This document shows, one piece after another, positions 3,287-64,000 of a stretch of 64,000 bases of DNA. The notes under the pieces are model-generated. The model was not told the DNA's origin. It worked only from the letters and a program-made list of their open reading frames with translations, and ran no database searches. Position 1 is the stretch's first letter. Every line of letters begins with the position of its first letter. The translations under genes and the position numbers were made by a program. The stretch lies in the NCBI GenBank assembly GCA_023665725.1, contig JAMPDH010000003.1, forward strand, positions 5,484 through 69,483, written 5' to 3'. This DNA comes from Clostridium sp. GTDB lineage: Bacteria > Bacillota_I > Bacilli_A > RF39 > UBA660.

Positions 3287-3829
3287 TTAATCAATTAAAA
3301 ATGTATTAATTCCATATTGTTCTTTTAGAGGATCAAAAAAGAATTCATTTATTACCGGATTATATGTTAAATATGCAAATATAACATATATTATTATAAT
3401 AAATACTAACGAAACTATATTTAACCAAGTGTAGTTTTTTTCTAATGATAAAATTTTATATGAAATAAATTGAGTAATAACAATAGCTATAAATATAATA
3501 AAAATAGTTATAGGTAAATTTTCACCTATTTTATAGTATACAGGTAAAAAAATAATTAAAAATATAATTATATTAGAAATAATAGAAATTAAAATACTAA
3601 ATAGGAAGTTATTGTACTTAATATTAAGTTTTTTTAACAGTATATATTCTATTATACTGTAAATAAGTATTGAGCTAGAAATTATTTTCATATGTTCAAA
3701 TATACTTTCATTTACAGAAAAAAATATAGAAAATAATGTGTTTGGAAACCAATCATATAAAAAATGACATAAAAAACTAAGCAAAAAAATCCCAAAAATA
3801 CTAATAATTTTAACTTTTTTTAAATTCAT
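3287..3829 (-). CDS. Hypothetical polytopic membrane protein.
   Basis: A 180-aa ORF with 5-6 hydrophobic segments. No recognisable family motif. Confidence 0.35.
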   Translation of the reverse strand: MNLKKVKIISIFGIFLLSFLCHFLYDWFPNTLFSIFFSVNESIFEHMKIISSSILIYSIIEYILLKKLNIKYNNFLFSILISIISNIIIFLIIFLPVYYKIGENLPITIFIIFIAIVITQFISYKILSLEKNYTWLNIVSLVFIIIIYVIFAYLTYNPVINEFFFDPLKEQYGINTFLID

Positions 3830-3944
3830 AATACACCTCTTAGTTAATATTATGATATAATTTTATAAAAATATTAAAAAAATGCTATAAAAAAAAGGAA
3901 ATTTAAAAGTTTTGTCGTATATTATTAGTAGGGTGTGATATTTC

Positions 3945-5669
3945 ATGATAAATAATGATGAAATAACTGATATAAGAAATAGTGTAGATATAGTAGATGT
4001 AATATCAAGATATATTCCATTAACTCCAAAAGGTAAAAACTATTTTGGAGTATGCCCATTTCATGATGATCACTCACCAAGTATGAGTGTTTCACGTGAA
4101 AAACAAATATATACTTGTTTTACTTGTGGCGCGACAGGAAATGTATTTAAATTTATAATGGATTATGAAAATATTTCATTTAAAGAATCACTAAAAATAG
4201 TTGCTGATATTGCTGGAAAGACTATAAATATTAAAAACATAAAACACGCGACAACGCCAAATCAAGAATTATATGATATTTATGATATAAGTGCAAAATA
4301 TTATCAAAATAATATAAATACAACAGTAGGAAAAGAAGCAAAAAATTATCTGTATGAACGTCTTATAGATGATAATATCATAAAAGAGTTTCAAATTGGA
4401 CTAGCTTTAAAGGAAGGCACATCATTAGTGACACTCCTAAGTAAAAAAAATTATAATAAAGAAAATCTAATTAAAAGTGGTTTAATTTTGAAAAGTGAAA
4501 AAGGTTATATAGATATATTTTATAATAGAATAATGTTTCCACTTTATGATATACAGGGTAGAATTGTTGCTTATAGTGGTAGAATATATAATCAAAAAAG
4601 TGACTCAAAGTATATTAACACTATGGAAACAGAAATTTTTAAAAAGGGCGAAATACTATACAATTACCATAGAGCTAAGGAGGAAGCAAGAACTAAAAAC
4701 CAAATAATAATTGTTGAGGGCTTTATGGATGTAATTAGACTTTATTCTATTGGTATAAAAAATGTAGTTGCTTCTATGGGAACCGCTGTAACTAGACAAC
4801 AAGTAAATTTACTTAAAAGGTTATCTAAAAATATTATATTACTTTTTGATGGAGATAAAGCTGGTGCCAAGGCAACCTATTCATGCTCTAACGAATTAAT
4901 AAAAGTAGGAATCATTCCTAAAATAGTAAGATTAGAGGAAAATTTAGATCCAGATGATTATGTAAAAAAATATGGAAGTCAAAAAATAATAGATAAAATA
5001 AATAATCCCATTAATATAATGGATTTTAAGTTATCATATTTAAAAAAGGATAAAGATTTTAACAATAACATGGAGAAGGCAACTTATATTAATGAAGTGT
5101 TAGAAGAATTAAATAAAATAGAGGATGATATATTAAAGGAATTAACACTTCAAAAAATAAGTGAAGAAACAGGTCTTGATAAAGATTTTATAAAATCTAA
5201 ATTAGGTGAAAAAAAAGTAGTTAAGGAAAAGATAAAACAAGTTTCGAGTGTTAAATTATCTAAATATGAAAAAGCGCAAATGTATTTAGTATATTACATG
5301 TTAAAAAGTGTAGAAGTTATAAAAATATATAGTAAAAAAATTACGTACATTCCTATAGAAAAATATAGGAAATTAGCCTTTGAAATAGATTATTTTTATA
5401 AAAAAAATAGTAAATTTGAAATGGCTGATTTTATAACATATTTAGAATGTGAAAATAGTAAACTACTTGATGTTATTAATGAGATAAATTTATTAAACCT
5501 TAAAGAAGAATATGACTTAGAAGAAATAAATGATTATGTAAAGACAATAAATGAGTATAATATAAAAAATGAATGTGATAGGCTAAAAAATAAAATGAAT
5601 AATGAAGTTAGTTCTATAGAAAAAGCAAATCTATTACAACAAATAATAAATTTAAAGAAGCAAAGTTAG
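3945..5669 (+). CDS. dnaG: DNA primase.
   Basis: CHC2 zinc finger (CPFHDDHSPSMSVS...YTCFTCGATGNVFKF), a TOPRIM region (IIVEGFMDV, LLFDGDKAG) and a C-terminal DnaB-interaction domain. Confidence 0.9.
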   Translation: MINNDEITDIRNSVDIVDVISRYIPLTPKGKNYFGVCPFHDDHSPSMSVSREKQIYTCFTCGATGNVFKFIMDYENISFKESLKIVADIAGKTINIKNIKHATTPNQELYDIYDISAKYYQNNINTTVGKEAKNYLYERLIDDNIIKEFQIGLALKEGTSLVTLLSKKNYNKENLIKSGLILKSEKGYIDIFYNRIMFPLYDIQGRIVAYSGRIYNQKSDSKYINTMETEIFKKGEILYNYHRAKEEARTKNQIIIVEGFMDVIRLYSIGIKNVVASMGTAVTRQQVNLLKRLSKNIILLFDGDKAGAKATYSCSNELIKVGIIPKIVRLEENLDPDDYVKKYGSQKIIDKINNPINIMDFKLSYLKKDKDFNNNMEKATYINEVLEELNKIEDDILKELTLQKISEETGLDKDFIKSKLGEKKVVKEKIKQVSSVKLSKYEKAQMYLVYYMLKSVEVIKIYSKKITYIPIEKYRKLAFEIDYFYKKNSKFEMADFITYLECENSKLLDVINEINLLNLKEEYDLEEINDYVKTINEYNIKNECDRLKNKMNNEVSSIEKANLLQQIINLKKQS

Positions 5670-5681
5670 GAGAATAATATT

Positions 5682-6761
5682 ATGGTAAATGAAATAAAAG
5701 GGTATGAGACAAGAAAAAATGAATTAGTAGAAAAAGGAAAAAGAGACGGATTTATAACTTATGAAGAACTTGCAAAAACTTTAAAGGGATTAGAATTAGA
5801 CGCAGATACTTTAGATGATTTATATAATGCTTTTAATGAAAATAATATAGCAATAGTATCAGAGGATGAAGAAGGAGAAAATGGAGTAGAAAAACTTTTA
5901 CTAGATGATGATACATTAACTAAAGATTTAACTATAAATGATCCAGTTAGAATGTATTTGAAAGAAATTGGACAAATTAAATTATTAACCATGCAAGAGG
6001 AATTAGATTTAGCAGATAAAATTTTAGAGGGAGATGAGTCTGCTAAAACAATTCTTGCAGAGGCAAATTTAAGATTAGTAGTAAGTATTGCTAAAAGATA
6101 TGTAGGGCGTGGAATGCTGTTTTTAGACTTAATACAAGAAGGTAATATAGGTTTAATGAAAGCAGTAGATAAATTTGATGTAACTAAAGGATATAAATTT
6201 TCTACATATGCTACATGGTGGATTAGACAAGCAATTACTAGAGCGATTGCAGATCAAGCTAGAACAATAAGAGTACCAGTTCATATGGTAGAAACAATAA
6301 ATAAGCTAGCACGTATACAAAGACAATTGACACTAGAATTAAACCGTGAACCAACTGAACAAGAATTATCAAAAAAAATGAATATTTCAGTTGAAAAGAT
6401 AAGAGAAATATATAAAATTAGTCAAGAACCAGTTAGTCTAGAAACTCCAATAGGAGAAGAAGATGATTCCCATTTAGGTGACTTTATAAAAGATGAACGT
6501 AATATGAGTCCTGAAGAATATGCAACAAATGAAATGCTAAAAGATGAAATATCAGAAGTGTTACTTACCTTAACTGAAAGAGAAGAAAAGGTAATAAGAT
6601 TAAGATTTGGGCTTGAAGATGGCAAATCTAGGACACTAGAAGAGGTTGGGCAAATGTTTGGAGTTACTCGTGAAAGAATAAGACAAATAGAAGCAAAAGC
6701 ATTAAGAAAGCTAAGACATCCATCACGTTCTAGAAAATTAAAAGACTATATGGAGGATTAG
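5682..6761 (+). CDS. sigA: Primary RNA polymerase sigma factor SigA/RpoD.
   Basis: AGGAG RBS. Region 1.2 ([11 protein letters not shown]), region 2 ([52 protein letters not shown]) and region 4 ([28 protein letters not shown]) are all present. The dnaG-sigA order is conserved. Confidence 0.92.
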
Positions 6762-7366
6762 TGATTTTATCCAAAAGATTAAAAACAATCGCTGATATGG
6801 TAGATACTAAAATAATTTATGATATAGGTTGTGATCATGCACTTTTAGATATTTATCTATCAGAAAAGGAAACATATTGTATAGCTATAGATATAAGTCC
6901 TTATTGTATAGAAAAAGCTTCTAAAAATATAGGCAATAATAAATATATAAAATTGTTAGTTAATAATGGTTTACAAGGAATAGATATAGTTAATAATTCA
7001 ACTGTTATTTTAAGCGGTATGGGAGTAAAAACAATATTAGATATTATAAATGGTAAAAATATAGATAACTTAATATGTCAAACTAATAAAAATATATATG
7101 AACTAAGAAAAAAAGTTTGTTCTTTAGGATATTATATAGAAAACGAAAAAGTAATATTTGATAAAAGATATTATATTATTATAAAATTTAAAAAAGGAAT
7201 TTCTAATTACAATGAAAAAGAACTTCATTTAGGACCTATACTTCTCAAAAACAAAACCGATATTTATTATGATTATTTAAAGTATTTAAAAAAAATAAAT
7301 ATTAATATTAGGTATCATAATATCGAAAAGCAAAATTTACTTAAAATAATAAACGAAGAGTTATAA
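6761..7366 (+). CDS. trmK: tRNA (adenine22-N1)-methyltransferase TrmK (YqfN family).
   Basis: GTG start overlapping the sigA stop. LSKRL...IYDIGCDHALLDIYL aligns with the YqfN N-terminus. Position after sigA matches Bacillus. Confidence 0.65.
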   Translation: MILSKRLKTIADMVDTKIIYDIGCDHALLDIYLSEKETYCIAIDISPYCIEKASKNIGNNKYIKLLVNNGLQGIDIVNNSTVILSGMGVKTILDIINGKNIDNLICQTNKNIYELRKKVCSLGYYIENEKVIFDKRYYIIIKFKKGISNYNEKELHLGPILLKNKTDIYYDYLKYLKKININIRYHNIEKQNLLKIINEEL

Positions 7367-7380
7367 ATCTCTTCGTTTAT
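7349..7380. terminator. Bidirectional intrinsic terminator between the convergent trmK gene and the 7380..7748 gene.
   Basis: A 12-bp perfect stem (ataaacgaagag / ctcttcgtttat) with an 8-nt loop, overlapping both stop codons. Confidence 0.6.
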
Positions 7381-7748
7381 TATGCAAAAAAAGTTGGACC
7401 CTGATTGTTATCTATATTTATACTATTATTTTCTTGAATAGTTTGTTTATTGTTTTGATTTTTATTAATATTTTGATTATTTACTACATTATTTGAATTA
7501 CTAGGAGTATCTACTTTTTTAAACTCATTCATAACTCTAAACATAGTTTTAGCATTTTTTACAACTGGGGAAATTTGTTTAATAGTAGGTATTGTTTGAT
7601 TTATAATATTTAAAGTCCTTTGAGTTCCATTTAAAATACTACTCCAGTTAATCCCATTTCTAAATAATCTTGAGAAAAGTCCAGTGCCTACCCTCGTTGG
7701 AATTGCTGTGTATGGGTATCCCATACCATAAGGAAAGTAGTAGTTCAT
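7380..7748 (-). CDS. YqfQ/VrrA-like hypothetical protein, Asn/Gln-rich.
   Basis: MNYYFPYGMGYPY...GLFSRLF...LNGTQRTL...IKQISPVV resembles the B. subtilis yqfQ product, which lies near sigA-yqfN. The call rests on low-complexity similarity only. Confidence 0.35.
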   Translation of the reverse strand: MNYYFPYGMGYPYTAIPTRVGTGLFSRLFRNGINWSSILNGTQRTLNIINQTIPTIKQISPVVKNAKTMFRVMNEFKKVDTPSNSNNVVNNQNINKNQNNKQTIQENNSINIDNNQGPTFFA

Positions 7749-7850
7749 TTATAACACCTCTAAAATATTATATGAATAAAATAAAAAAAGTTTTACAAAA
7801 TATAAAATTGTGTTATAATATTTTATAGAATAGGGATTGGAGTGTGCAAT

Positions 7851-9851
7851 ATGACAAATTTATTGTCAAAAATAGTCAACATAATAAAATATCCTTTCAT
7901 TGGACTTTTTTTTACATTATATATAATTGTGTATGTAATATACTTATTATTTAAATATCTTATACTAGGTATTATATTTATTATATATGCACCATTTAAA
8001 TTAATTTCAGGATTGCTTAAGCCCAAAGAAAACATACCAAAAACAAAACCAGAAAAAATAAGTTCAAGTAAAAGAAAGCAAGATGTAATAGAAATTCGTA
8101 ATCAAAAAAAATTACAAAAAATAGAGAAGCAACAACTTAGAAAACAACAAAAAGCTATGCTTTTTGAAAAGAAAAAACAAGAAAAGGAATTAGACAAGGT
8201 TAATCGTTTGACTAATGACCCTAAATTTGCTAAGAAACAAGCTGCAAAGGAAGCAAAAAAACAGGCTAAATTAGAAAAAGAAAATTTAATAAAACAAAAG
8301 TTATTAAACAAGGCAAAATCTGATATAAAGAAGGATGAAACCAGAGAAGAAAAAGCATTAAGATTGCTTCAAGAAAGAGAAGAAAAGAAAAAAGAAAAGG
8401 AACGTATTAGAAAGCTAAAAAAAGAAGCAAAACAAAAAGTTTTAGAAAAATCTAAACAAGATATTTTGGAAGATCCAAAACTTGCTAAGTATGCAGGCAA
8501 ACCATTTGGAAAATTAATTCAAAAAATATATACTTTGCCATTTGTAAGACGTGCTAGAAATAAAAGAGATATAAATAGACAAGCATTAATGCTTGAATTT
8601 GATAATAAATCAACTAAAAAAAATGAAACAAAGGTTGTATATATTTATGAAGCAAAGAATCCAGAAGGCAAAATTGTTAGAGAAAAATTTGCTGCATATT
8701 CCAAAGTAGAGGTACATTCATTTTTGCTTAGTGAAGGATATGAAGTATATAGTATAAAAACAAATCCTTTAATTCAAATATTATTTAAAGAAAACGCTAC
8801 TGTTAAATTTAAAACAAAAGATTTAATATTCTTTTTAACACAATTATCAACTTATATTAAAGCAGGTATTACTTTAGTAGAAGCATTAAAAGTATTATCT
8901 AGGCAATATAAACAAAGAAAGTACAAGGATATATTTAGAGGACTTATATATGATTTGTCTACAGGAGAAAGTTTTAGTAATGCCATGCTAAAACAAGAAA
9001 GTACATTTCCTAAGTTACTTATAAATATGGTTAAAGCGGCGGAACTTACAGGTGAGTTGACAGAAGCACTCGACGACATGGCAGATTATTATTCTGAGGT
9101 AAATAAAACAAGAAAACAAATGATTAATGCAATGACATATCCGGCTATTGTTCTATTTATATCTATTGCAGTTTTAACGTTTATAATGGTTTATGTTATT
9201 CCAAAATTTGTTGATATGTATGAAGCAATTGATCCAAGTAAAATACCTGGATTTACTATAGTAATAATGAATATAAGTAATTTCCTTCAAACTAATATTT
9301 TATATATTGGAATTATACTTGTTGTCGTTATTATTGCATTTATTTTATTATATAAAAAGGTTAAAGTATTTAGAACAACTATCCAATGGATATTAATGCA
9401 TATTCCTGTTATAGGAAATGTGATTATTTATAATGAAGTGTCAATGTTTACTAAGACATTTGCGTCATTACTTGCGCATAATGTATATATAACTGATAGT
9501 ATGGAAATATTACAAAAACTTACTAATAATGAAATATATCAATCAATTATTCTTGAAACAGTTACTAATTTAGCAAAAGGAGAAAAAATTTCATCTGCAT
9601 TTAAAGATCATTGGGCATTCCCAATTCCTGCATATGAAATGTTAGTAACTGGAGAAAGCACAGGTCAACTTGCAGAAATGATGCAAAAAGTATCTATATA
9701 TTATCAAGAATTACATAAGGATATTGTAACAAAGATTAAAACATTATTAGAGCCTGCATTAATCATAATATTAACTGTAATGGTTGGAATAATAGTTCTT
9801 TCAGTTGTAGTACCAATGTTTAGCTTATATAATGCAATACAAGAGATGTAA
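7851..9851 (+). CDS. pilC: Type IV pilus / T2SS platform protein PilC/GspF with a roughly 240-aa N-terminal extension (2 TM plus a Lys/Glu-rich low-complexity region).
   Basis: GGAG lies 9 nt upstream of the ATG at 7851. The GTG at 7842 has no RBS. The C-terminal 425 aa carry two T2SSF repeats (TFPKLLINMVKAAELTGEL..., LVTGESTGQLAEMMQKV) and three TM segments. An extended -10 (TGTTATAAT) sits at 7811-7819. Confidence 0.8.
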   Translation: MTNLLSKIVNIIKYPFIGLFFTLYIIVYVIYLLFKYLILGIIFIIYAPFKLISGLLKPKENIPKTKPEKISSSKRKQDVIEIRNQKKLQKIEKQQLRKQQKAMLFEKKKQEKELDKVNRLTNDPKFAKKQAAKEAKKQAKLEKENLIKQKLLNKAKSDIKKDETREEKALRLLQEREEKKKEKERIRKLKKEAKQKVLEKSKQDILEDPKLAKYAGKPFGKLIQKIYTLPFVRRARNKRDINRQALMLEFDNKSTKKNETKVVYIYEAKNPEGKIVREKFAAYSKVEVHSFLLSEGYEVYSIKTNPLIQILFKENATVKFKTKDLIFFLTQLSTYIKAGITLVEALKVLSRQYKQRKYKDIFRGLIYDLSTGESFSNAMLKQESTFPKLLINMVKAAELTGELTEALDDMADYYSEVNKTRKQMINAMTYPAIVLFISIAVLTFIMVYVIPKFVDMYEAIDPSKIPGFTIVIMNISNFLQTNILYIGIILVVVIIAFILLYKKVKVFRTTIQWILMHIPVIGNVIIYNEVSMFTKTFASLLAHNVYITDSMEILQKLTNNEIYQSIILETVTNLAKGEKISSAFKDHWAFPIPAYEMLVTGESTGQLAEMMQKVSIYYQELHKDIVTKIKTLLEPALIIILTVMVGIIVLSVVVPMFSLYNAIQEM

Positions 9852-9862
9852 GGAGTTATAAT

Positions 9863-10630
9863 ATGACTATATATTATTCAATTTGCTTTTTCATATTAGG
9901 GATGGTATTAGGATCATTTTATAATGTAGTTGGTTCTAGAATTCCTAATGGAGAATCAATATTATATCCAGGTTCCCATTGTACTAATTGTAATCATAAA
10001 TTAATGCCATGGGAACTTATTCCTGTTATTTCTTTTTTTCTTTTAAGAGGAAAATGCAGTAGTTGTAAGCAGAAAATATCATGGGTATATCCATTATTTG
10101 AATTATTTTCTGGATTATTATTTATGATAGCGTTTTTAATATTTGGACTTTCTTTAGAACTAATAATATCCTTAACTTTTATTTCACTTATTTTAATAAT
10201 TACAATAAGTGATTTTCAATATATGATAATACCTGATTCAATTATAATTTTTTTCTTTTTGTTAATTAGCGTTGAAATATTTTTTATTAGAGGATCTAAT
10301 TCATTATTATATGGTTTATTTAGCGCTTTAATATCATTTATAGTTATGTTTTTAATAAAAAAATTAGGTGATTTTCTATTTAAAAAAGAATCTATGGGCG
10401 GTGGAGATATTAAACTTCTTTCAATATTTGGACTTACATTAGGTTGGCCTATTGCATTGATATCTATATTTGTTGGAGCTTTAGTAGGATTACCAATTGC
10501 TTTAATTATATGTATAAAACACAATAATCATATTTTACCATTCGGTCCATTACTTGGAATAGGCGCAATAATACTACTTTTTACTAGAATAGATATAAAG
10601 CAAATATTAGATTTTTTTACAATATTTTAA
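9863..10630 (+). CDS. pilD: Prepilin peptidase (A24 family, PilD/ComC).
   Basis: N-terminal tetracysteine (CTNCNHKL...CSSCKQKI), a polytopic membrane domain and the GGGDIKL catalytic region. Confidence 0.85.
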   Translation: MTIYYSICFFILGMVLGSFYNVVGSRIPNGESILYPGSHCTNCNHKLMPWELIPVISFFLLRGKCSSCKQKISWVYPLFELFSGLLFMIAFLIFGLSLELIISLTFISLILIITISDFQYMIIPDSIIIFFFLLISVEIFFIRGSNSLLYGLFSALISFIVMFLIKKLGDFLFKKESMGGGDIKLLSIFGLTLGWPIALISIFVGALVGLPIALIICIKHNNHILPFGPLLGIGAIILLFTRIDIKQILDFFTIF

Positions 10631-10663
10631 AAAACTTTTCAAAATAAAATGAAAAGTTTTTTT
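10630..10663. terminator. Bidirectional intrinsic terminator between pilD(+) and lexA(-).
   Basis: An 11-bp stem (aaaaacttttc / gaaaagttttt) flanked by T-runs on both strands. Confidence 0.65.
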
Positions 10664-10667
10664 AATT

Positions 10668-11285
10668 TTATAATTTTCTATATAATCCTATTGCTTTTCC
10701 TAATACACTAACATTATCTAATATTATAGGACTCATTGTATCATTTTCTGGTTGTAATCTAAAATGATTATTTTCTTTGTAAAACCTTTTAAGTGTTACT
10801 TCATTTTCTTCTGTCATTGCAACAACAATATCTCCATTTTTAGCAGTGTTTTTTCTTTCTACAATAACAATATCATTATCATGTATACCCGCATTAATCA
10901 TACTAGTTCCACTTACTAGTAATGTAAATACTTCTTTGTTATTTGGAATTAGATAAGATGGTAATTGAAAGTATTCATTCGGTTTTTCTATTGCTTCTAT
11001 TGGAGTACCAGCTGTTATTTTGCCAAGTAGTGGAACTGAAACAACATTTTCGTTCTTTTCCTGAAATTCATTTTCTACAAGTAATTCAATAGCCCTATTT
11101 TTAGAACCATCTTTTCTTATAAAACCTTTATTAGAAAGATTATTTAAATGTGCATGAATAGTAGCAGGCGAAGAAACTCCTAAATCCTTACATATTTCTC
11201 TTATAGCCGGTGGATATCCATGAGATACTATAAATTTTTTTATATATGTAAGTATCTCGTCTTGTCTTTTAGTTAATTCTTTCAA
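10668..11285 (-). CDS. lexA: LexA repressor (SOS regulator, S24 peptidase).
   Basis: N-terminal winged HTH (LTKRQDEILTYIKKF...GYPPAIREICKDLGVSSPATIHAHL). The AG cleavage site is in LLGKITAGTPIEA. Catalytic Ser is in VSGTSM and Lys is in TLKRF. Confidence 0.9.
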   Translation of the reverse strand: MKELTKRQDEILTYIKKFIVSHGYPPAIREICKDLGVSSPATIHAHLNNLSNKGFIRKDGSKNRAIELLVENEFQEKNENVVSVPLLGKITAGTPIEAIEKPNEYFQLPSYLIPNNKEVFTLLVSGTSMINAGIHDNDIVIVERKNTAKNGDIVVAMTEENEVTLKRFYKENNHFRLQPENDTMSPIILDNVSVLGKAIGLYRKL

Positions 11286-11362
11286 ATTTAAACCTCCTTT
11301 ACGTACATTTACATTGTAACATATCTTTTTTTAAAAGTCAAACATTTGTTTGATAAAATTAT

Positions 11363-11391
11363 TGACACGAACAATTGTTCATGATAAACTT
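11363..11391. promoter_or_regulatory. Divergent promoter region with a Cheo/SOS box (GAACAATTGTTC at 11369..11380) inside a plus-strand sigma-A promoter (TTGACA, 17 nt, TAAACT).
   Basis: The perfect palindrome CGAACAATTGTTC matches the Firmicutes LexA operator consensus GAAC-N4-GTTC. It lies 84 nt upstream of the lexA start (minus strand) and 33 nt upstream of the small plus-strand ORF. Confidence 0.7.
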
Positions 11392-11412
11392 TAATTAATG
11401 GAGGTAATGATT

Positions 11413-11553
11413 ATGAAAGAAATGTTAAGAAGTAAAGGAATACTATTATTTATAGTTGCATTTATTGGAGTTACATATATTAATGCAATAGGTACAGTTA
11501 GAATAGAAAATAGTAATTATAGTAATAATTATATTGACGAAAATATTAGATAG
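11413..11553 (+). CDS. 46-aa single-TM peptide transcribed divergently from lexA, downstream of the SOS box. Candidate SOS-induced cell-division inhibitor analogous to YneA/SosA.
   Basis: GGAGGT RBS 7 nt before the ATG. The product is MKEMLRSKGILLFIVAFIGVTYINAIGTVRIENSNYSNNYIDENIR. A plausible terminator (aaatatt...aatattttttt) follows. It is absent from the ORF track because it is under 60 aa. Confidence 0.4.
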   Translation: MKEMLRSKGILLFIVAFIGVTYINAIGTVRIENSNYSNNYIDENIR

Positions 11554-11600
11554 AGTGTTATTTAATATTTTTTTGTATAAGAAAAAGTGTATTAAACACT

Positions 11601-12899
11601 TTATAAATCCCAATCTAAATCTAAATCTAAATTATCATCTAATTTTTCATTATGAGAAATATTAGTAAAATCTATTGCAGTTTTTAAATCATATTGTGAA
11701 TCTTTAGATTCTTCATCATCTTCTAGTTCGATAAGTTTTAAAATTTCCTCAATAGTGGTTTCTCCTTCTACAACTTTTTCAAGTCCATCTTGCAAAAGGG
11801 TTATAACATCAGATTGATAAACTAACTCTCTTAATTTTTCTTTTGGTAGATTTGCAGATAGGGCATCTTTGATTTTTTGATCAATCATTAATATTTCATG
11901 TATAGCAACTCTTCCATGGTATCCGTTTCCACATTCTTCACATCCAACAGGACTATATATATAATCAACATTTTTTCCTAAAACTTTCATAAGTAAATTT
12001 TTTTCATATGTATTTGTAGGACGTTTTTCTCTACAATTTTTGCATAATTTACGAGCTAAATTTTGAGATATAATTCCTGTTAATGCACTTGCAAGTAAGT
12101 ATCTTTCAACTTCCATATCTAATAAACGCTCAATAGTATTAAGTGAGTTATTAGTATGCAATGTAGATAATACTAAATGTCCAGTTATAGAAGCTCTTAC
12201 AGCAATTTTTGCAGTTTCAGTGTCACGAATTTCTCCAATCATTATTATATTAGGGTCTTGACGAAGTATAGAACGTAGTGCTGTTGCAAAATCTAATCCG
12301 ATTTCACTATTTGTTTGAATCTGATTAATTCCTTCTATATCCATTTCTATCGGATCTTCAACCGTTATTATATTTGTTTGTTCTTTGTTTAGTCTTTGAA
12401 GAATAGAGTAAACTGTTGTAGATTTTCCTGTTCCAGTAGCACCTGTAACTAATATTATTCCATTAGGAACTTCTATCATTTTTAAAACTTTTTTGTAATT
12501 TTGTTCACTAAAACCTAAAGATTCAAGTCCTGCTAAACTCATGGAATAGTCTAATATACGAATAACTACTTTTTCTCCTTCACTTGTAGGAATTGATGAA
12601 ACACGAAGATCCAAATTTAAATCTTGTAAGGTTGTTTTAATCGCACCATCTTGAGGTAAACGAGACTCAGTTATATTCATACCACTTATTATCTTTATAC
12701 GAGTAATAAGATTTTTTTTAATGCTATTAGGTATAATGCAGTAATCTATCAAAGCACCATCTATTCTAATTCTTACTTTCATATGCTCAGTTAATGGATC
12801 AAAATGTATATCACTTGCTTCACGTTTTGCAGAGTCAACTAATATTTCATTTACTATCTCCACAACTGGCATTTTATCAAAATCAAATACTTTTATCAC
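11601..12899 (-). CDS. pilB: Type IV pilus assembly ATPase of the PilB/GspE type. Short form, 432 aa, lacking the N-terminal GSPII domains.
   Basis: GTG start with a GGAGAG RBS. Walker A (GATGTGKSTT), Asp/His boxes, and the C-terminal tetracysteine CKNC...CEEC typical of GspE/PilB and absent from PilT. The acidic DLDLDWDL tail is unusual. Confidence 0.85.
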   Translation of the reverse strand: MIKVFDFDKMPVVEIVNEILVDSAKREASDIHFDPLTEHMKVRIRIDGALIDYCIIPNSIKKNLITRIKIISGMNITESRLPQDGAIKTTLQDLNLDLRVSSIPTSEGEKVVIRILDYSMSLAGLESLGFSEQNYKKVLKMIEVPNGIILVTGATGTGKSTTVYSILQRLNKEQTNIITVEDPIEMDIEGINQIQTNSEIGLDFATALRSILRQDPNIIMIGEIRDTETAKIAVRASITGHLVLSTLHTNNSLNTIERLLDMEVERYLLASALTGIISQNLARKLCKNCREKRPTNTYEKNLLMKVLGKNVDYIYSPVGCEECGNGYHGRVAIHEILMIDQKIKDALSANLPKEKLRELVYQSDVITLLQDGLEKVVEGETTIEEILKLIELEDDEESKDSQYDLKTAIDFTNISHNEKLDDNLDLDLDWDL

Positions 12900-12996: not shown

Positions 12997-14088
12997 ATGA
13001 AAAAAAACGAAAAAGGCTTTATATTAACTGAAGTTTTGATAATATCTGCTATAGTTTTAGGGGTATTAGTATTTATGTATGCACAATTTAGAAATATAAA
13101 TGTTAGTTTTAGGCAAACATATAGATATAATACAGTAGAAGGAATATATAAAGCCAATGAAATAAAAAAATTTATAGAATCTGATGCTATTAATAGTATG
13201 ATATCACTACTTAATGATGAAAATAAAACTTATATAGATATAACTGAATGTGATGTATCTACATATAATAATCCGAGTTTTTGTAAAATATTGTATGAAA
13301 AATTAGGAATTAAATCTGTATTATTATTGAATGAAGATGTTACTAGTTTAGTTAATTCGGGTATGGATAACTTAGATAATGGTACTAAGAATTTTATTAA
13401 ATATGTTGGAAAAAACTATACAGGTAATTATTATAGGATTATTGCTGTATTTGATGATGATACATATTCAACAGTTAGAATTGACATATTAAAGGATAGA
13501 TATGATTTTACTTATAATGAAGATATGTATACATTTGTAGTTCCAGCAAATGGTTATTATCAAATAGAATTATGGGGCGCGAGTGGAAGTCAGGATATTA
13601 ATACTACGGCTAGAGGAGCATATACAAGAGGTACCATATATTTGGAAAAAGATACTAAATTATACATATATGTCGGAGTCCAAGGGGATAATTCTATACA
13701 TCGTGGAGAGGATTATATAAGTAATCTAGGTGGGTATCAAGTAACAAATAATAATGAATTAATTGGCGGAGAAGAAACAGATATACGTCTAGTAAAAGGT
13801 AATCCATTAAACTTTGATAGTTTAAAATCTAGAATAATGGTTGCTGATGGTGGAACAGGATCTTCATTTATATCAGGTTATGATGGTTGCGACGCATTAA
13901 GTGAATCATCAACTATTGATAATGTAATCAATACAGGAAAATCAATTCATTACAGTGGTTATAAATTTGAAAATGCTATCATGATTGCTGGAAATAAGGA
14001 AATACCAAGTTATAATAATGGTTTCACAACTGGCAATATAGGTAATGGATATGCTAGGATTACTGTGATGTCAATAGAAGGAGTGTAG
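12997..14088 (+). CDS. Type IV pilin-like protein (class III signal peptide) with a C-terminal glycine-rich domain (ALK/LTK-type Gly_rich fold).
   Basis: AAGGGG RBS. The leader MKKNEKG|FILTEVLI carries G-1, F+1 and E+5. The C-terminal YTFVVPANGYYQIELWGASGS...ARGAYTRG...LYIYVGVQG...GGEETDIRL...MVADGGTG matches the glycine-rich domain signature. Confidence 0.7.
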   Translation: MKKNEKGFILTEVLIISAIVLGVLVFMYAQFRNINVSFRQTYRYNTVEGIYKANEIKKFIESDAINSMISLLNDENKTYIDITECDVSTYNNPSFCKILYEKLGIKSVLLLNEDVTSLVNSGMDNLDNGTKNFIKYVGKNYTGNYYRIIAVFDDDTYSTVRIDILKDRYDFTYNEDMYTFVVPANGYYQIELWGASGSQDINTTARGAYTRGTIYLEKDTKLYIYVGVQGDNSIHRGEDYISNLGGYQVTNNNELIGGEETDIRLVKGNPLNFDSLKSRIMVADGGTGSSFISGYDGCDALSESSTIDNVINTGKSIHYSGYKFENAIMIAGNKEIPSYNNGFTTGNIGNGYARITVMSIEGV

Positions 14089-14090
14089 TT

Positions 14091-15209
14091 ATGAAAAAGA
14101 ATGCTTTTACTATAGTAGAATTAATAGTTTCACTAAGTATAACTTTAGTTGTAATGATTATACTCTATGAAATTATAATTTTACTTAAAGACACATTTCA
14201 ATCATCTAGTTTAAAAACAGAAATTTTAAATAAGGAGTCTATATTAATTGATAATATGTATTCCGATTTTAATAATAATTCTGTTTCTTCAATTATACAA
14301 TGTGGTGACTATTGTTTAGATTTTACAATGACTAATGCAAATACAAAACGTTTACAAATTGACAAAGAAAACTTAACAATTTCTTATGGAGATTATATTA
14401 TAAAATTAAAAGACACTTATAGTATAGGAAATATATATTTTTCAAATGATTCTATTGCTTCATATGATAACAACAATAATTCTATTTTAGCTATAAAAAT
14501 ACCAATATATTCTAAAGTAAGTGGAAACGAGGATTTAGGAATAAAAATTGCATTTTCTTATAATAGTAGGCAAGTTTCCATAGGTCCAATTTATATAGTT
14601 GATAATACAAACGATTGTAGTGATAACACATTTTGTAAAGACAGTAAATATAATATAGGTGACAAGGTTAAATTAGCCGGATTTAATTGGCATATTATAG
14701 AAGATAATGAATCTACTATTACACTTTTACTTGATACAAGTGAAATACCTAACAGAAGTCATGTTACTCAAACAATGACATCATACAATTGGTCTACATC
14801 ATATATAAATGACTATTTAAATAATAATTTTTATAATTTATTAAAAATAAATGGTTTAAATTTGGATTATATAATAACATCTAAAACAGGAATATGTGAT
14901 GATAAAACTTTAAGTGGTGGTAATCCTGGAAGTCTTTCAACAGAAGGAACTACTTGTAATTCAAACTATATATATTCTAACGTAAGAATGATGTCAGTAG
15001 ATGAATTCCAAAAATTAAAAAATTATTTAACCGAAAATAATATAAATTCTGAATTTTTATATTCTTCTACTGCTGGTAAATGGGCTTTGATTAATGGAGT
15101 TAAAGATAAAAATAATATAGTTCAAATTGATGAAAATGGAAATACAATTGAAGATAACTACTCATCACTTCTAAATGTGAGAGCTGTAATTGAGATAAGA
15201 AAAAAATAA
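14091..15209 (+). CDS. Pseudopilin-like protein with a prepilin-type N-terminus and a C-terminal DUF6273-like domain.
   Basis: GAAGGAG RBS overlapping the upstream stop. The leader MKKNA|FTIVELIV has F+1 and E+5. The C-terminal VKLAGFNWHIIEDNESTITLLLD...MMSVDEFQKL...LLNVRAVIEI has the same architecture as the 775..2073 product. Confidence 0.65.
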   Translation: MKKNAFTIVELIVSLSITLVVMIILYEIIILLKDTFQSSSLKTEILNKESILIDNMYSDFNNNSVSSIIQCGDYCLDFTMTNANTKRLQIDKENLTISYGDYIIKLKDTYSIGNIYFSNDSIASYDNNNNSILAIKIPIYSKVSGNEDLGIKIAFSYNSRQVSIGPIYIVDNTNDCSDNTFCKDSKYNIGDKVKLAGFNWHIIEDNESTITLLLDTSEIPNRSHVTQTMTSYNWSTSYINDYLNNNFYNLLKINGLNLDYIITSKTGICDDKTLSGGNPGSLSTEGTTCNSNYIYSNVRMMSVDEFQKLKNYLTENNINSEFLYSSTAGKWALINGVKDKNNIVQIDENGNTIEDNYSSLLNVRAVIEIRKK

Positions 15210-31692: not shown

Positions 31693-31717
31693 ATATTTTA
31701 ATTAATATCTTTTTTTT
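31691..31717 (+). terminator. Intrinsic terminator after the sigma paralog.
   Basis: agatatt-ttaatt-aatatct followed by TTTTTTT. Confidence 0.65.
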
Positions 31718-31786
31718 AGAAAAATTTTAAAGTTCTTTTTTATCATATTTATACATAAATATATATAAAGTAGGTGAGGTATAAGT

Positions 31787-32533
31787 ATGAATAATATTTT
31801 ACTTGGTTTTATATTAACTACAATTGCTGGATTCTCTACAATGATTGGAACATTACTTATATTTTTTAAAAAGAATAAAAAAATAATTATATCATCTCTT
31901 GCTTTTGCATCTGGTGTAATGCTTTGTGTGTCTCTAACAGATTTAATACCAGAAAGTGTTAAATTAATAAATGAAAAATTTAATACAATTCCTACTATTC
32001 TTTTAGTACTTATATTTATAGTAATAGGTATAATTATTTCATCATATATAAATTTAAAACTTCCCATAGAAAAAAAGGAGAATAATGGATTATATAAAGT
32101 AGGAATATTTTCAATGTTTGCAATAATTGCACACAATATACCAGAGGGAATAGCAACATTTTTAGCTACAAGTACTGATACATCTCTTGGAATCATGCTT
32201 ACGATAGCTATAGCGCTTCATAATATACCAGAAGGTATAAGTATATCAATTCCTATATATTATTCACTAAATAGCAAAAAAAAAGCAATAGGATACACTT
32301 TAATTTCAGCTCTATCAGAACCATTTGGTGCCCTACTTGCTTATATATTTTTAAGTAGGGTAGTAAATAACCAAATAATGGGTTATATTTTTTCTAGTAT
32401 TGCAGGAATAATGATATACATATCACTTTATGAATTACTTCCTACATCATTTAAATACAAAGATAAGAAACGAACAATAATATTATTTATAATAGGAATA
32501 ATATTTATGTATATTAATTCAATTTTATTTTAA
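31787..32533 (+). CDS. ZIP family metal (zinc) transporter, ZupT-like.
   Basis: GGTGAGGT RBS. Eight TM segments. HNIPEG occurs twice (AIIAHNIPEGIATF, ALHNIPEGISISIPIY). Confidence 0.8.
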   Translation: MNNILLGFILTTIAGFSTMIGTLLIFFKKNKKIIISSLAFASGVMLCVSLTDLIPESVKLINEKFNTIPTILLVLIFIVIGIIISSYINLKLPIEKKENNGLYKVGIFSMFAIIAHNIPEGIATFLATSTDTSLGIMLTIAIALHNIPEGISISIPIYYSLNSKKKAIGYTLISALSEPFGALLAYIFLSRVVNNQIMGYIFSSIAGIMIYISLYELLPTSFKYKDKKRTIILFIIGIIFMYINSILF

Positions 32534-32536
32534 TAA

Positions 32537-32561
32537 AAGGAACTATAATTAATAGTTCCTT
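32537..32561. terminator. Bidirectional terminator between the ZIP transporter gene (+) and the small ORF (-).
   Basis: aaggaactat / atagttcctt 10-bp stem. On the minus strand it is followed by a U-rich run. Confidence 0.55.
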
Positions 32562-32587
32562 AAATTTGGGTAAATTAATACATCAAA

Positions 32588-32740
32588 TTATTTACATTCA
32601 TATGAATTACTATTATTACTATTATTATTCATTGAAGTATTATTTGATGATGTAGTATTAGCATTTTGTTCAAAATTTGTTCTCTTAGAACTATTCTTAG
32701 AACTTTTGCTTTTAGATTTTAAATTCTTATTCTTATCCAT
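32588..32740 (-). CDS. Small (50 aa) basic Ser/Asn-rich hydrophilic protein.
   Basis: GGTGA RBS 4 nt before the ATG. The product is MDKNKNLKSKSKSSKNSSKRTNFEQNANTTSSNNTSMNNNSNNSNSYECK. A terminator lies downstream. It is not in the ORF track (under 60 aa). Confidence 0.3.
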   Translation of the reverse strand: MDKNKNLKSKSKSSKNSSKRTNFEQNANTTSSNNTSMNNNSNNSNSYECK

Positions 32741-32840
32741 TTTAATCACCCAATAATATTATTGGTAATTATATATAAATTATACTATTAAATGCAATTA
32801 TTTAAACTTCGTATAATTAATATTATGTTAACTTCTTATT

Positions 32841-54556: not shown

Positions 54557-54568
54557 AATCCTGCTTTT
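54547..54568. terminator. Bidirectional terminator (agcaggat-aaaa-tcctgct).
   Basis: A perfect 7-8-bp GC-containing stem flanked by T-runs on both strands. It sits between convergent genes. Confidence 0.65.
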
Positions 54569-55577
54569 ATATTGATCTTAATTTATTTATAACATTTTCA
54601 AATGTATCTGCTTCTACAATAGTTATATTATAATTATTTTCTCTTACTAAATTAATTACTTCATCATAATTTTCACCAGTTGGAACTATAAATATATCAG
54701 CTCCATTTTTAACCGCGCCTTTTAACTTATATTTTACCCCACCAATACTACCAACTGTACCATCTAAATTAATTGTCCCTGTACCTACTATATTTCTCCC
54801 CCTAGCAATATCCTCTTCTGTTAAATAATCATAGATCGCTATCGTTAACATCAACCCTCCAGATGGTCCAGTTTCGGAGGCATCATAATTAAATGTAAGT
54901 AATGGATTAGTATCCACTTCATATATTTCGCTAACTATTATCCCTATAACTGCCCTATTATTTAATTCCTTTAATGTTGATATAACATTATACTCCTTAT
55001 TATTTCTTTTAACTGTTATTGTTACTTTATCTCCTACACTATATCTATCTAATATTTTATATAAGTCATCTTTATTTTGTATTTTTTCATTTTCTACTTT
55101 TAATATTTCATCTCCAACTTTTAATTCAGTATCAGAATCTATATCTACATAAGTTATATAAACTTTAGTATCTTTAATAGTTACTTGTCCTTTTGCATAA
55201 TTATAAGCAACTATTGTAGCATTATTAACCGATTCTTTAAGCATTATATCACTTCTAAATATTGCTTGTTCTAGTGTTTCATTATCGTATTTTGTATCAT
55301 CAATATTAATAATATCATAATCTTTATTTATAAGTGAATATAAATAGATTGGTATTGTTGCCCTATATTCACTTACATAGGATAAATTTATACTACCATT
55401 AATTTTATTTGAATTTTCTATAGTTATTTTATCATTTACATTTATAAGTCCACCAGGAGCATCTATATAAAAAGGCAATTTAATTATAGAAATTAAAAAT
55501 ATAATAATAAGAGTTATTAAAAATTTTCTATTTTCTTTTATATAATTTTTAATTTTTTCATAAAATTTAGTAATCAT
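54567..55577 (-). CDS. YlbL/SepM-family protein: N-terminal TM, PDZ domain and Lon-protease (S16) C-terminal domain.
   Basis: DAPGGLINV..., PDZ region (VGDEILKVENEKI), and S16 motifs GPSGGLMLTIAIYD and GTGTINLDGTVGSIGGVKYK. Confidence 0.75.
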   Translation of the reverse strand: MITKFYEKIKNYIKENRKFLITLIIIFLISIIKLPFYIDAPGGLINVNDKITIENSNKINGSINLSYVSEYRATIPIYLYSLINKDYDIINIDDTKYDNETLEQAIFRSDIMLKESVNNATIVAYNYAKGQVTIKDTKVYITYVDIDSDTELKVGDEILKVENEKIQNKDDLYKILDRYSVGDKVTITVKRNNKEYNVISTLKELNNRAVIGIIVSEIYEVDTNPLLTFNYDASETGPSGGLMLTIAIYDYLTEEDIARGRNIVGTGTINLDGTVGSIGGVKYKLKGAVKNGADIFIVPTGENYDEVINLVRENNYNITIVEADTFENVINKLRSI

Positions 55578-61325: not shown

Positions 61326-61402
61326 TGGTAGTCTGTACGAGATTCGAACTCGTGAATGTCACCTTGAGAGGGTGATGTGTTAAGCCTCTTCACCAACAGA
61401 CC
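61326..61402 (-). tRNA. tRNA-Glu with anticodon CUC (77 nt including an encoded CCA).
   Basis: The cloverleaf was derived by hand. Acceptor GGUCUGU / ACAGACU has a G1.U72 wobble. D-arm GUGAAGAGGCUUAACAC. Anticodon stem UCACC / GGUGA with loop CUCUCAA (anticodon at plus 61366..61368). T-arm ACGAG-UUCGAAU-CUCGU. Discriminator A, then CCA. Confidence 0.75.
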
Positions 61403-61504: not shown

Positions 61505-63109
61505 TTATATTATTTTTTTATATTGTTTTGGATCTATTACTGTTTCATCAGTTACTTCATAAGTTATATTTTTCTCATTACTGATAAGTGCATCCCATTT
61601 TAGTTCAGATAAAGAATCTTCTATTATTGTTTTTAAAGATCTTGCTCCTAAATTTAATTCATTTGCTCGTTTTGCTACTTCTTTTAAGTAAGATTCATCA
61701 TAAGAAAGATTTATATTATTAAGTTCAAGAAGCTTTTTCTCAATTGAAATGGGACTACTACTAGGAGTTTTTAAAATATCTACAAGTTCATTAAAACCTA
61801 ATGGATTTAGTTTTATAATTTGATGAAGTCTTCCCATAAATTCGTTTGGAATTAAACCTACATTTATATAATCATTAGTAGTTACTTCTTTTATAACTTT
61901 ATCATTAGTATTTCCAAATCCTAATTGTTGTTTATTAATACTTTGACTTACATTGCTAAATGCTCCTCCAGCAAATAAATTTAAATATTTTGTATTAAAT
62001 ATATATGGAACTCTATTTACTGAAATTTGATAATCTGCTCCATCAAAAAATTGTAATAATGAATTTAAAACTCCTCTTCCTGAAACATCTCCATTACTTT
62101 TACTACCCTTTTTATCTATCTCATCAAAAAATATTATACCAGTTCTTTCTGCATATTTAATTTTATTTTCAATAGATGCACTTAATGATACTTTAGATAC
62201 TAAAGAACTTAAAATATCTTCTAAATTATCTCCAACATAACCCGCTACAGTTAATTGTGATGTAGCAACTTTAACCATTGGTATTTTAATTTTTGTTTCT
62301 TTTTCTAAATATTCCATTATAGTTTCTAATATTAATGTTTTACCTACTCCAGTAGGTCCTGTTATTAAACATCTAGTGGGTTTAAAATCACTTATTTTAT
62401 TTGATGAAACAGCTAAATAATTATATATAAAAATCATAATTATTTTTTTAACAGCTTCATCCTGATTTATAACCTTACTAGTTACATACTTATATAAATC
62501 ATTTACATCAAATGGTATATTAGTATCTAAACTCTTTTTTATCTCAGGAATAGTGTCTTCAATTTCTGCATTTTCATCATTATAACGTTCATAAAAATTA
62601 TTTATATACTTTTTAAGTTCATCTATATCATTAGTATTTAATAATTTATGAATAGTTTCTTCCTCAAAGTAAAAACGATTTTTTTCCGAATAAGTGTCTT
62701 CTTCATTATTATTTTCTAAATTTTTAACTTTTGTATTTAATTCCTTATAATTTGTAATATCATCAATTGGTATTGTAATTAACATAAATTCTTCCACATC
62801 ATTTATAATACCAATATATATATTTTCGCTTAATCTATCTGAATATTCTTCAATTACCTTACATTCATCATCACATTTAAATTGTTCTTTTAATTTGCAT
62901 ATTGATGTTGGAAAAGCAAAAAACTCATTTGTATTATCAATTGTCATATCTGATGTCAAAACATCAGAATATGTATTATTATACTTATCAACAAATATTG
63001 AATACTTTTCATCATAGTTCCCTTCTAAAACATGAATTTTTTTAAAAACAAATGTATTATTATCAATTATTATCCTTTCCATTAATATAGCAACATATTT
63101 ACTTTCCAT
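61505..63109 (-). CDS. ClpX-like AAA+ unfoldase paralog. It has a novel 230-aa N-terminal domain in place of the C4 zinc-binding domain.
   Basis: AGGGGGA RBS. Walker A ITGPTGVGKT. ClpX/HslU blocks VAGYVGDNLEDIL, IIFFDEIDKKGSKSNGDVSGRGVLNSLLQFFDG, LNLFAGGAF and GLIPNEFMGRL. The sensor-2 region is LGARSLKTIIED. Confidence 0.7.
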   Translation of the reverse strand: MESKYVAILMERIIIDNNTFVFKKIHVLEGNYDEKYSIFVDKYNNTYSDVLTSDMTIDNTNEFFAFPTSICKLKEQFKCDDECKVIEEYSDRLSENIYIGIINDVEEFMLITIPIDDITNYKELNTKVKNLENNNEEDTYSEKNRFYFEEETIHKLLNTNDIDELKKYINNFYERYNDENAEIEDTIPEIKKSLDTNIPFDVNDLYKYVTSKVINQDEAVKKIIMIFIYNYLAVSSNKISDFKPTRCLITGPTGVGKTLILETIMEYLEKETKIKIPMVKVATSQLTVAGYVGDNLEDILSSLVSKVSLSASIENKIKYAERTGIIFFDEIDKKGSKSNGDVSGRGVLNSLLQFFDGADYQISVNRVPYIFNTKYLNLFAGGAFSNVSQSINKQQLGFGNTNDKVIKEVTTNDYINVGLIPNEFMGRLHQIIKLNPLGFNELVDILKTPSSSPISIEKKLLELNNINLSYDESYLKEVAKRANELNLGARSLKTIIEDSLSELKWDALISNEKNITYEVTDETVIDPKQYKKII

Positions 63110-63208
63110 ACAAAATCCCCCTATGTAATTACTAAACTAAGTATTTAGTATATAAATTTTTTTTAAATTAGTCAATACCTTTTATTTTAATTATTTACAT
63201 AGAAAAAA

Positions 63209-64000
63209 TTATTTTATTTTTATATTATATTCAGTACTTTGTTTTTCCATCAAATCATTTAATTGTTCATTAGATATGTATATTACTTTACCACCTTTTG
63301 GTTCTATTTTATTATTACCAAAGACTATCCATATTATATTCATATATATATCTGACATTGATGCATACCCATCTGTAAAAATTATTTTATTTTCAGCAGT
63401 TTTACTAAAAGCATTAATAGCTGCATTAAAATCAGTCCCACCCCTACCTATAAATTGCATATTATCTATGTCATTTTCTGTTCTAATTTCGGTAAAGCCA
63501 TAAAATTCAGTATCAAAACACCCTGCTTTAATTTTAGAAAACTGTAAAATATTTTTACATTCTCTTAGGGAGTTTCTTAAAAGGGTTTCAGAAACAGAAC
63601 CACTGGTATCAAAAAGTATTTCCGTTTCAGACCATGGCATTTCCTCAAGATGTGGTGTGACTACACCGTCTTCTATAGAAGCATTTTTATAAGACCAATC
63701 CATATCATATTTAGCAAGGTCTATTAATAATCTTCTCCAGTCAACTAAAGACTGTGCAGAACCTATATTATTTATATTAATTATATTTGCATTAGATCCT
63801 GTACCTGCCTCTATAATTTCTTTAGAAATTTCATTTCTTAGTTCCTCTAGACGTTTTTTTCTATCTATTTTATTTTGATTAAAAAAATTTTTTTCTCCTA
63901 ACTCAGTTAACTTTGTAATTTGTTGCTGTTTTTCTATATCCTTATTGGCTTTTTCACTATCTATATTTGATTTTTCCTTGTTTTTATCCTGTCTATTAAA
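63209..64000 (-). CDS. VWA-domain protein (DUF2201/VWA-like C-terminal domain). The 5' end is truncated by the window edge.
   Basis: The frame is open from 64000 down to the stop at 63209. A coiled-coil-like Lys/Glu-rich segment precedes a VWA-like fold with a MIDAS-like motif (DTSGSV, GGTDF, IIFTDGYAS). Confidence 0.5.
   Translation of the reverse strand, partial: FNRQDKNKEKSNIDSEKANKDIEKQQQITKLTELGEKNFFNQNKIDRKKRLEELRNEISKEIIEAGTGSNANIININNIGSAQSLVDWRRLLIDLAKYDMDWSYKNASIEDGVVTPHLEEMPWSETEILFDTSGSVSETLLRNSLRECKNILQFSKIKAGCFDTEFYGFTEIRTENDIDNMQFIGRGGTDFNAAINAFSKTAENKIIFTDGYASMSDIYMNIIWIVFGNNKIEPKGGKVIYISNEQLNDLMEKQSTEYNIKIK

Follow-up and report, generated by a model that had tools for sequence, protein, structure and literature searches.

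Genes at the locus

The window analyzed here is a stretch of 64,000 nucleotides (contig JAMPDH010000003.1 of the assembly GCA_023665725.1, labelled Clostridium sp.; positions 5,484 to 69,483 of the forward strand), close to the end of which two genes lie side by side on the minus strand: a gene of an ATPase resembling the ClpX unfoldase, and the truncated gene of a protein with a VWA-like domain. A sequence-only reading had joined these genes into an operon, possibly a defence or regulated-proteolysis module, adjacent to an atypical tRNA gene. According to the results presented below, they are very probably two unrelated units placed side by side, namely a stand-alone ClpX-family gene and the tail of an inserted diversity-generating retroelement (DGR) cassette. 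The G+C content of the region is about 24%.

The ClpX-like gene (61505..63109, minus strand) is an open reading frame (ORF) encoding 534 amino acids, deposited in NCBI as MCM1443968.1 under the name 'AAA family ATPase'. Pfam search of the protein revealed the domains AAA_2 (7.4e-15, residues 247-430), AAA (6.5e-13) and ClpB_D2-small (1.9e-6). Its best NCBIfam matches were the ClpX models TIGR00382 and PRK05342, with 169.3 and 148.3 bits, respectively; these values are less than half of the equivalog cut-offs (359 and 370.75), so that the protein cannot be counted among the ClpX equivalogs. The HslU model TIGR00390 matched in three separate stretches with 91.6 bits (4.9e-26), also well below its cut-off of 362. 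The closest relatives in PDB were ClpX chains, with Listeria ClpX 6sfw found at 2.1e-33. Alignment with the latter structure showed the following elements of an intact ClpX-type AAA+ core: the Walker A motif GPTGVGKT (residues 251-258, 62336..62359, minus strand, read from the sequence), the pore-1 loop GYVG (residues 290-293, 62231..62242, minus strand), the Walker B motif DEID (residues 329-332, 62114..62125, minus strand), the pore-2 motif DVSGRGV, the motif EFMGRL with the arginine finger and the sensor-2 motif GARSL. The tripeptide LGF (residues 396-398, 61916..61924, minus strand) was aligned with VIGFG of 6sfw, which makes it the equivalent of the IGF loop by which ClpX docks onto ClpP.

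Conservation of these elements was assessed in an alignment of 31 ClpX-like family members, which are merely 28-52% identical to the window protein. Residues G251, G254, G256 and K257 of Walker A are invariant, as are D329, E330 and D332 of Walker B (31/31), I331 being kept in 30 of the 31 sequences. GYVG, either intact or with one substitution, is found in every aligned member, while the [I/L/V]-G-F tripeptide is present in 29 of the 31, with G397 invariant.

The N-terminal part of the protein has another nature. The C4 zinc-binding domain of ClpX (PF06689) was absent in the Pfam search at E values up to 0.1, and residues 1 to ~210 gave no Pfam match at all. This region comprises a family-specific domain (residues 1-120; 62750..63109, minus strand) followed by an acidic, partly helical linker extending to approximately residue 210.

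The upstream gene (63209..64000, minus strand) is represented in the window by the last 263 of its 465 codons, as deduced from its translation, the rest lying beyond the window edge. It encodes a DUF2201_N domain (an HExxH metallopeptidase) and a VWA-like DUF2201 domain. The latter (PF09967, 3.7e-11; residues 129-242 of the partial translation, 63275..63616, minus strand) contains the motifs DTSGS, GGTDF and FTDGYAS, read from the translation, which correspond to those of a metal ion-dependent adhesion site (MIDAS). Therefore, the sequence-only reading proved to be accurate in the description of both proteins, i.e., of a ClpX-type AAA+ ORF with the listed motifs, of the replacement of the zinc finger by an unrelated N-terminus, and of a partial co-oriented gene that ends in a VWA-like domain and runs off the window.

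The VWA-like gene as the last gene of a DGR cassette

The genes beyond the window edge were recovered from a 93.9-kb contig of the metagenome-assembled genome GCA_023666545.1 (labelled Clostridium sp.), the ClpX-like protein of which, MCM1443968.1, is identical to that of the window. This locus (L001) was oriented with the ClpX-like gene on the plus strand, at 10001-11605, and all L001 coordinates below refer to this orientation. A gene of a GltX-family synthetase (2290-3948) is followed there by a gene of an Avd-like protein of 193 amino acids (4139-4720; matches to DivGenRetAVD and bAvd), a template repeat of 77 nt (4792-4868), a gene of a reverse transcriptase (RT) of 341 amino acids (5086-6111; RVT_1, 5.4e-16), a short ORF of 84 amino acids (6134-6388), a variable repeat of 77 nt (6370-6446), an ORF of 556 amino acids (6428-8098) with Walker A GKPSDGKS, Walker B IIFFDE and the motif AAGNE, a gene of a 132-aa protein (8095-8493) and, finally, the complete gene of the 465-aa DUF2201_N and DUF2201 protein (8504-9901; PF13203 9.5e-22, PF09967 1.1e-10). 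The VWA gene is hence the terminal gene of a DGR cassette of five genes and about 6 kb, inserted between gltX and the ClpX-like gene.

This assignment is based, above all, on the repeats. The template and the variable repeats of L001 differ at 8 of 77 positions, all 8 being adenines in the template and all falling into AAT codons of the target frame, which is the template-to-variable adenine replacement characteristic of DGRs. Differences confined to template adenines were also found in the cassettes of other loci, namely in L082 (12/12), L169 (11/11) and L119 (10/10). The RT gene lies adjacent to the template, as expected for a DGR, beginning 218 bp 3' of it.

The short ORF and the 556-aa ORF belong to a common frame, interrupted by a lone in-frame TAA, and this frame contains the variable repeat. 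The read-through product has relatives in more than 2,400 clusters, typically of 630-650 amino acids, which cover 96-98% of it; both ORFs are therefore regarded as one target gene (6134-8098), the short ORF being its 5' part. The protein encoded by this gene consists of a variable domain at the N-terminus and a MoxR-like ATPase fused to it. Five proteins of this family (P0122, P0123, P0124, P0134 and P0152; 909-936 amino acids) were observed to have the N-terminal variable module together with the next beta-rich domain tandemly duplicated before the ATPase. The ATPase with its Walker motifs is encoded two genes upstream of DUF2201, i.e., in the position of a MoxR partner beside a VWA protein. 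Because of this MoxR-type ATPase, the VWA protein has its canonical partner within the same cassette, although the sequence-only reading had assumed that such a partner was lacking. The 132-aa protein gave no significant match in Pfam, NCBIfam or PADLOC; by eye it looked like a degenerate copy of the ATPase core, which was rejected as BLASTP displayed no significant similarity.

Some features of the cassette weigh against its complete identification as described. The matches of the Avd-like protein, restricted to its C-terminal 110 residues, are below the curated cut-offs, both for DivGenRetAVD (1.9e-6; 28 bits at a cut-off of 80) and for bAvd (0.0044; 18 bits at a cut-off of 40). The attribution of the variable domain to the C-type-lectin class is drawn from weak Pfam matches, DUF6273 (4.8e-4) and Fib_succ_major (0.005), each found in 1 of 26 relatives, while a precomputed PF19789 match is on record for four of the target relatives from the large search. 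The AAA_5 matches of the target ATPase are weak as well (0.0078 in the protein of the window genome; 3 of 26 relatives).

Separate distribution of the cassette and the ClpX-like gene

The same gene order (Avd-like gene, template repeat, RT, target ATPase, 132-aa gene, DUF2201) was found at other chromosomal sites, where it always terminates with DUF2201: between recO and glyS in L082, between genes of an ABC transporter and an AMP-binding enzyme in L084, adjoining a methyltransferase gene in L169, between greA and pyk in L170, and after fmt in L171. In 85 further loci retrieved with the ATPase, the 132-aa gene was present in 71, DUF2201 in 67 and RT in 27; ATPase and DUF2201 occurred together in 68 of 86 loci. 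Overall, the cassette was encountered again in no fewer than 68 further loci. None of these 85 loci, and none of the 88 other cassette loci in all, contained a ClpX-like gene within reach. Many trios of ATPase, 132-aa and DUF2201 genes (L143-L146, L133, L137 and others) were seen to have neither RT nor Avd within 6 kb upstream, which means that the trio also exists with no DGR next to it, or else is supplied by one acting in trans. Clusters of the target family are almost all cellular rather than viral, the cassette being found on a single viral contig. Directly after the cassette of L082, a PDDEXK_2 gene (Rpn/transposase-like nuclease; 13827-14720) was noticed; no integrase or transposase was seen beside the cassette at the other loci.

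The reciprocal comparison included 82 ClpX-like loci, of which 80 originated from species-representative genomes and two, from the closest relatives on long contigs. Neither DUF2201 nor MoxR-like nor RT genes were detected within 10 kb in any of them, by tblastn and by family hidden Markov models built from 63, 98 and 28 members. The most frequent neighbouring gene cluster of the ClpX-like gene occurs in at most 22 of 81 loci, and the recurrent neighbours are of housekeeping type: hisS, aspS, murC, ftsW-type genes, single tRNA genes and gltX. In the closest relatives (L002, L167 and L168), hisS and aspS are located directly 3' of the ClpX-like gene, while in about 14 relatives this place is occupied by a single tRNA-Met(CAT), often followed by tRNA-Gln(CUG) and gltX. 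The arrangement of the ClpX-like gene, tRNA-Met(CAT), tRNA-Gln(CUG) and the gene of a 552-aa GltX/GlnS-family synthetase was observed in L012, L055, L067, L072, L073, L075 and L077; this synthetase gene of the window genome is instead located upstream of the cassette insertion.

The tRNA gene downstream of the ClpX-like gene in the window is a tRNA-Glu(CUC) of 77 nt (61326..61402, minus strand; ARAGORN), as the sequence-only reading had stated. It scores 59.5 bits against the Rfam tRNA model (threshold 29), can be aligned with three tRNA-Glu(CUC) genes (L019, L061, L067) and one tRNA-Glu(UUC) gene (L051), the changes in the stems being found on both sides, and its 77-nt layout is that of the tRNA-Glu genes of related genomes. 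It is thus an ordinary chromosomal tRNA gene, not an atypical one, with no sign of mobility, and does not indicate a mobile context for the ClpX-like gene, which is followed by single tRNA genes in many relatives. The suggested accessory or mobile context is correct for the VWA gene, belonging to a mobile accessory cassette, but not for the ClpX-like gene with its housekeeping neighbourhood.

Two other features were noted in the window. A gene of a 336-aa protein with PDZ and Lon_C domains and no ATPase domain is located at 54567-55577 (minus strand), about 6 kb from the ClpX-like gene; such a gene lies near the ClpX-like gene in only 1 of 80 related loci (L061). At approximately 31700-32800, the GC skew turns from positive to negative and the gene orientation, from plus to minus, which is the pattern expected at a replication terminus.

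Are the two neighbours one operon?

The proposed operon, in which the ClpX-like ATPase and the VWA-like protein would make up a common module of defence or regulated proteolysis, was derived from the co-orientation of the two genes and the short distance of 99 bp between them, and both of these observations are true. The spacer between the last gene of the cassette and the ClpX-like gene (63110..63208, minus strand) shows no detectable terminator-like hairpin either. All this weighs against separating the two genes, which may still be co-transcribed in the window genome. At the same time, the spacer provides the ClpX-like gene with a strong ribosome-binding site of its own, AGGGGGA, and with a promoter-like site (TTGACT-17-TATACT at 63147-63175), although the latter is weak evidence, as such sites proved to be no commoner in this AT-rich region than in shuffled sequence (consensus scan). 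With a G+C content of 24%, neither the promoter scan nor the terminator scan discriminates. Thus, the neighbouring placement holds, and the operon is a deduction from it.

The pairing is absent in both directions, from all 88 other cassette loci and from all 82 ClpX-like loci, so that the adjacency is to be ascribed to the chance of an insertion site: it is peculiar to the window genome and is best explained by the place where the cassette was inserted. The VWA gene is therefore unlinked to the ClpX-like gene in relatives, which is the very observation named in the sequence-only reading as speaking against its proposal. Furthermore, the VWA protein is provided with a MoxR-type ATPase by its own cassette. 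As to defence, PADLOC 2.0 yielded no match for DUF2201, the target ATPase or the 132-aa protein and nothing specific for the ClpX-like protein, with generic P-loop or RT similarity only, and identity with a known defence system was rejected. A prophage morphogenesis cassette was rejected too: tblastn against phage genomes revealed only distant matches, with less than 33% identity to jumbo-phage ClpX and 22-29% identity for DUF2201 (in phage genomes of ~75-80 kb), and among viral contigs one carries the cassette and none, the ClpX-like N-terminal domain. Considering these facts, we regard the common VWA/ClpX module as highly improbable and consider this lead to be false, while the separate origin of the two units is, as stated above, very probable.

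The ClpX-like family and its N-terminal domain

The structure model of the first 120 residues is of high confidence, with a predicted local distance difference test score (pLDDT) of 93.7. In it, two helices and then a beta-hairpin come after a beta-rich domain; nothing matching it was found among solved structures. Searching 1.84 billion proteins with a profile of this domain retrieved 484 cluster representatives; in all of the 150 best matches listed, the domain is placed at the extreme N-terminus, the host proteins being mostly of 480-790 amino acids; shorter matches are presumably fragments. The profile also recognizes the 'long' forms of the family: in the genomes of L007, L009, L031 and L032, two ClpX-like members are encoded a few kb apart, one of ~700 ('long') and the other of ~500 amino acids ('short'). 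The domain was not found in viral contigs or phage genomes, where only generic ClpX cores of 27-35% identity were revealed. The family is restricted to uncultured low-GC gut Bacilli.

Judging from the conserved motifs, the ClpX-like protein would most likely act as a hexamer that unfolds selected proteins and delivers them to ClpP. Coupling to ClpP is deduced from the conservation of the [I/L/V]-G-F docking loop in 29 of the 31 family members, whereas the new N-terminal domain is inferred to be a substrate- or adaptor-choosing module and would pick the proteins, or their adaptors, for the hexamer. N-domains of ClpX decide which proteins are degraded, and for this reason a different set of clients is probable for the ClpX-like family.

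Two circumstances weigh against this assignment and in favor of a ClpP-independent role, in which the protein would be a stand-alone unfoldase or remodelling chaperone tethered to a specific client by its N-domain, similarly to mitochondrial ClpX acting on ALA synthase. The region corresponding to the RKH loop of canonical ClpX is shorter, variable and motif-less in the family, so that substrate recognition apparently differs from that of canonical ClpX, the zinc-binding domain of which is absent here as well. Besides, no clpP gene was found by tblastn with B. subtilis ClpP either in the window, in agreement with the sequence-only reading, or in the ~20-kb loci, which cover a small part of each genome. 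The frequent position of the gene directly upstream of hisS-aspS might be a hint of a dedicated client as well. On the other hand, the failure to find clpP is uninformative with such a coverage, and the maintenance of the docking tripeptide among proteins of 28-52% identity would be hard to explain in the absence of ClpP. Hence, we consider action without ClpP unlikely and adhere to the ClpP-coupled unfoldase.

A question of its own is whether this gene is the lineage's only ClpX, i.e., a housekeeping orthologue with a swapped N-domain, and not an extra paralog. The core-gene neighbourhood (hisS-aspS, tRNA genes, gltX) in the 82 loci, the retained machinery motifs and the absence of canonical clpX from the window and the ~20-kb loci (again a small part of each genome) are in line with such an orthologue, but the family duplicates, as evidenced by the two members lying close together in each of L007, L009, L031 and L032, and its score against the ClpX equivalog models does not reach half of the cut-off. 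Taking these data together, we find the sole-ClpX explanation plausible, though somewhat less likely than not. In either case, this is a real and unstudied family of ClpX-type unfoldases of gut Bacilli, in which the zinc finger is exchanged for a new domain, and it could reveal how gut bacteria with reduced genomes organize regulated proteolysis.

Stop codons in the template repeats

The L001 template contains the codons AAC TAA AAT; TAA is likewise found at this place of the variable repeat, where it splits the target into the 84-aa and the 556-aa ORFs. In-frame TAA or TAG was found in the templates of 9 of the 15 loci with an adenine-biased repeat pair, at no fewer than four codon positions. 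The variable repeat carries a stop in six of these nine loci (TAA in L001 and L169, TAG in L082 and L171, TGA in L095 and L096) and a sense codon in the other three (TAC in L166, AAG in L128, GAA in L170). Three of the variable-repeat stops, TAG of L082 and TGA of L095 and L096, are mutagenized forms of the template TAA; as they must be derived from a TAA-bearing template, homing went on after the template had gained the stop. The RT and Avd ORFs are intact in all template-stop loci except L128. Apart from this stop position, nothing interrupts the N-terminal ORF of L001, L095, L096, L169 and L171, while additional stops are present in L082 and L170.

An assembly chimera is an unlikely cause of the in-frame TAA, since the identical stretch common to both repeats is too short to cause a mis-join, and since this codon is also a stop in the template of L082, an independent genome with cassette proteins just 45-70% identical to those of L001. 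An alternative genetic code was rejected as well: with code 11, the long ORFs nearby are open throughout and have TAA as their terminator.

Either of two explanations may apply. The template stop could be an ON/OFF switch, with the full-length sensor-ATPase produced only from those variable repeats in which a sense codon has replaced TAA or TAG through adenine mutagenesis; the retroelement would then be both a switch and a diversifier, and a costly or self-reactive sensor could be kept silent in most cells. Together with the fusion of the hypervariable domain to the N-terminus of the ATPase, this would amount to a hitherto undescribed form of sensing driven by a DGR. Otherwise, the stops reflect plain decay of the sensor domain in several lineages, which is favored at L082 and L170 by their additional stops. 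The continued homing and the intact RT and Avd ORFs notwithstanding, we regard the switch as a rather doubtful proposition. The AAY codons of DGR templates are usually stated to avoid stops (PMC4891356), and no description of template-encoded stops was found in the DGR literature searched.

Comparison with known systems

Canonical ClpX of Listeria and E. coli (6sfw, 8e91, 3hws) and the window protein have in common a single AAA+ module with Walker A and B and GYVG, the pore-2 motif DVSG(E/R)GV, the arginine finger, the sensor-2 motif GAR(G/S)L and the D2-small domain, with LGF of the window protein occupying the location of the IGF loop. The identity of ~30-35% is limited to the core, however: the window protein has no C4 zinc-binding N-domain, carries the 120-aa domain with the acidic linker instead, and does not conserve the RKH loop. 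To HslU (ClpY) it is related by the AAA+ core and the C-terminal small domain, with a lower score than to ClpX, and differs from it by the absence of the I-domain insertion and the presence of the IGF-type loop. The latter is lacking in HslU.

With classical DGRs (BPP-1 Mtd, Treponema TvpA, phage DUF6273 proteins), the cassette shares the order of Avd (here an Avd-like gene), template repeat and RT, the adenine-specific differences, AAY codons at the variable positions and the GC-rich 3' boundary of both repeats. DUF6273, which gave one of the weak matches of the variable domain, has been described as a target domain of DGRs in the receptor-binding proteins of phages (PMC10743442). Three features set the cassette apart from the classical elements: its variable repeat is situated close to the 5' end of the target gene; the target protein, instead of being located on a surface or tail, looks like a cytoplasmic ATPase; and many templates contain in-frame TAA or TAG, avoided by the classical AAY design.

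The most similar systems described are the DGR-linked MoxR-vWA 'VMAP ternary' conflict systems, known mainly from multicellular cyanobacteria and gammaproteobacteria, in which the C-type-lectin variable domain is located at the C-terminus of the vWA protein, as is usual, or of a separate target, and the hypervariable domain was proposed to be a sensor (Kaur et al., 2020, PMC7159879; Dore et al., 2024, PMC10907252). The DGR link, the MoxR ATPase and the vWA protein are common to both. By analogy with these systems, the variable domain of the cassette might sense a ligand, whereupon the ATPase would act on the VWA-protease. The cassette differs, however, in that the ATPase itself carries the variable domain at its N-terminus, the vWA-like domain is of the DUF2201 type and fused to a DUF2201_N HExxH (zincin-like) peptidase, no VMAP protein was recognized in the cassette, its third gene encoding the 132-aa protein instead, and the hosts are gut Bacilli with small genomes. 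In unicellular gut Bacilli, DGR-linked MoxR/VWA systems are thus represented by a relative that is both compact and widespread and has an architecture different from those described so far.

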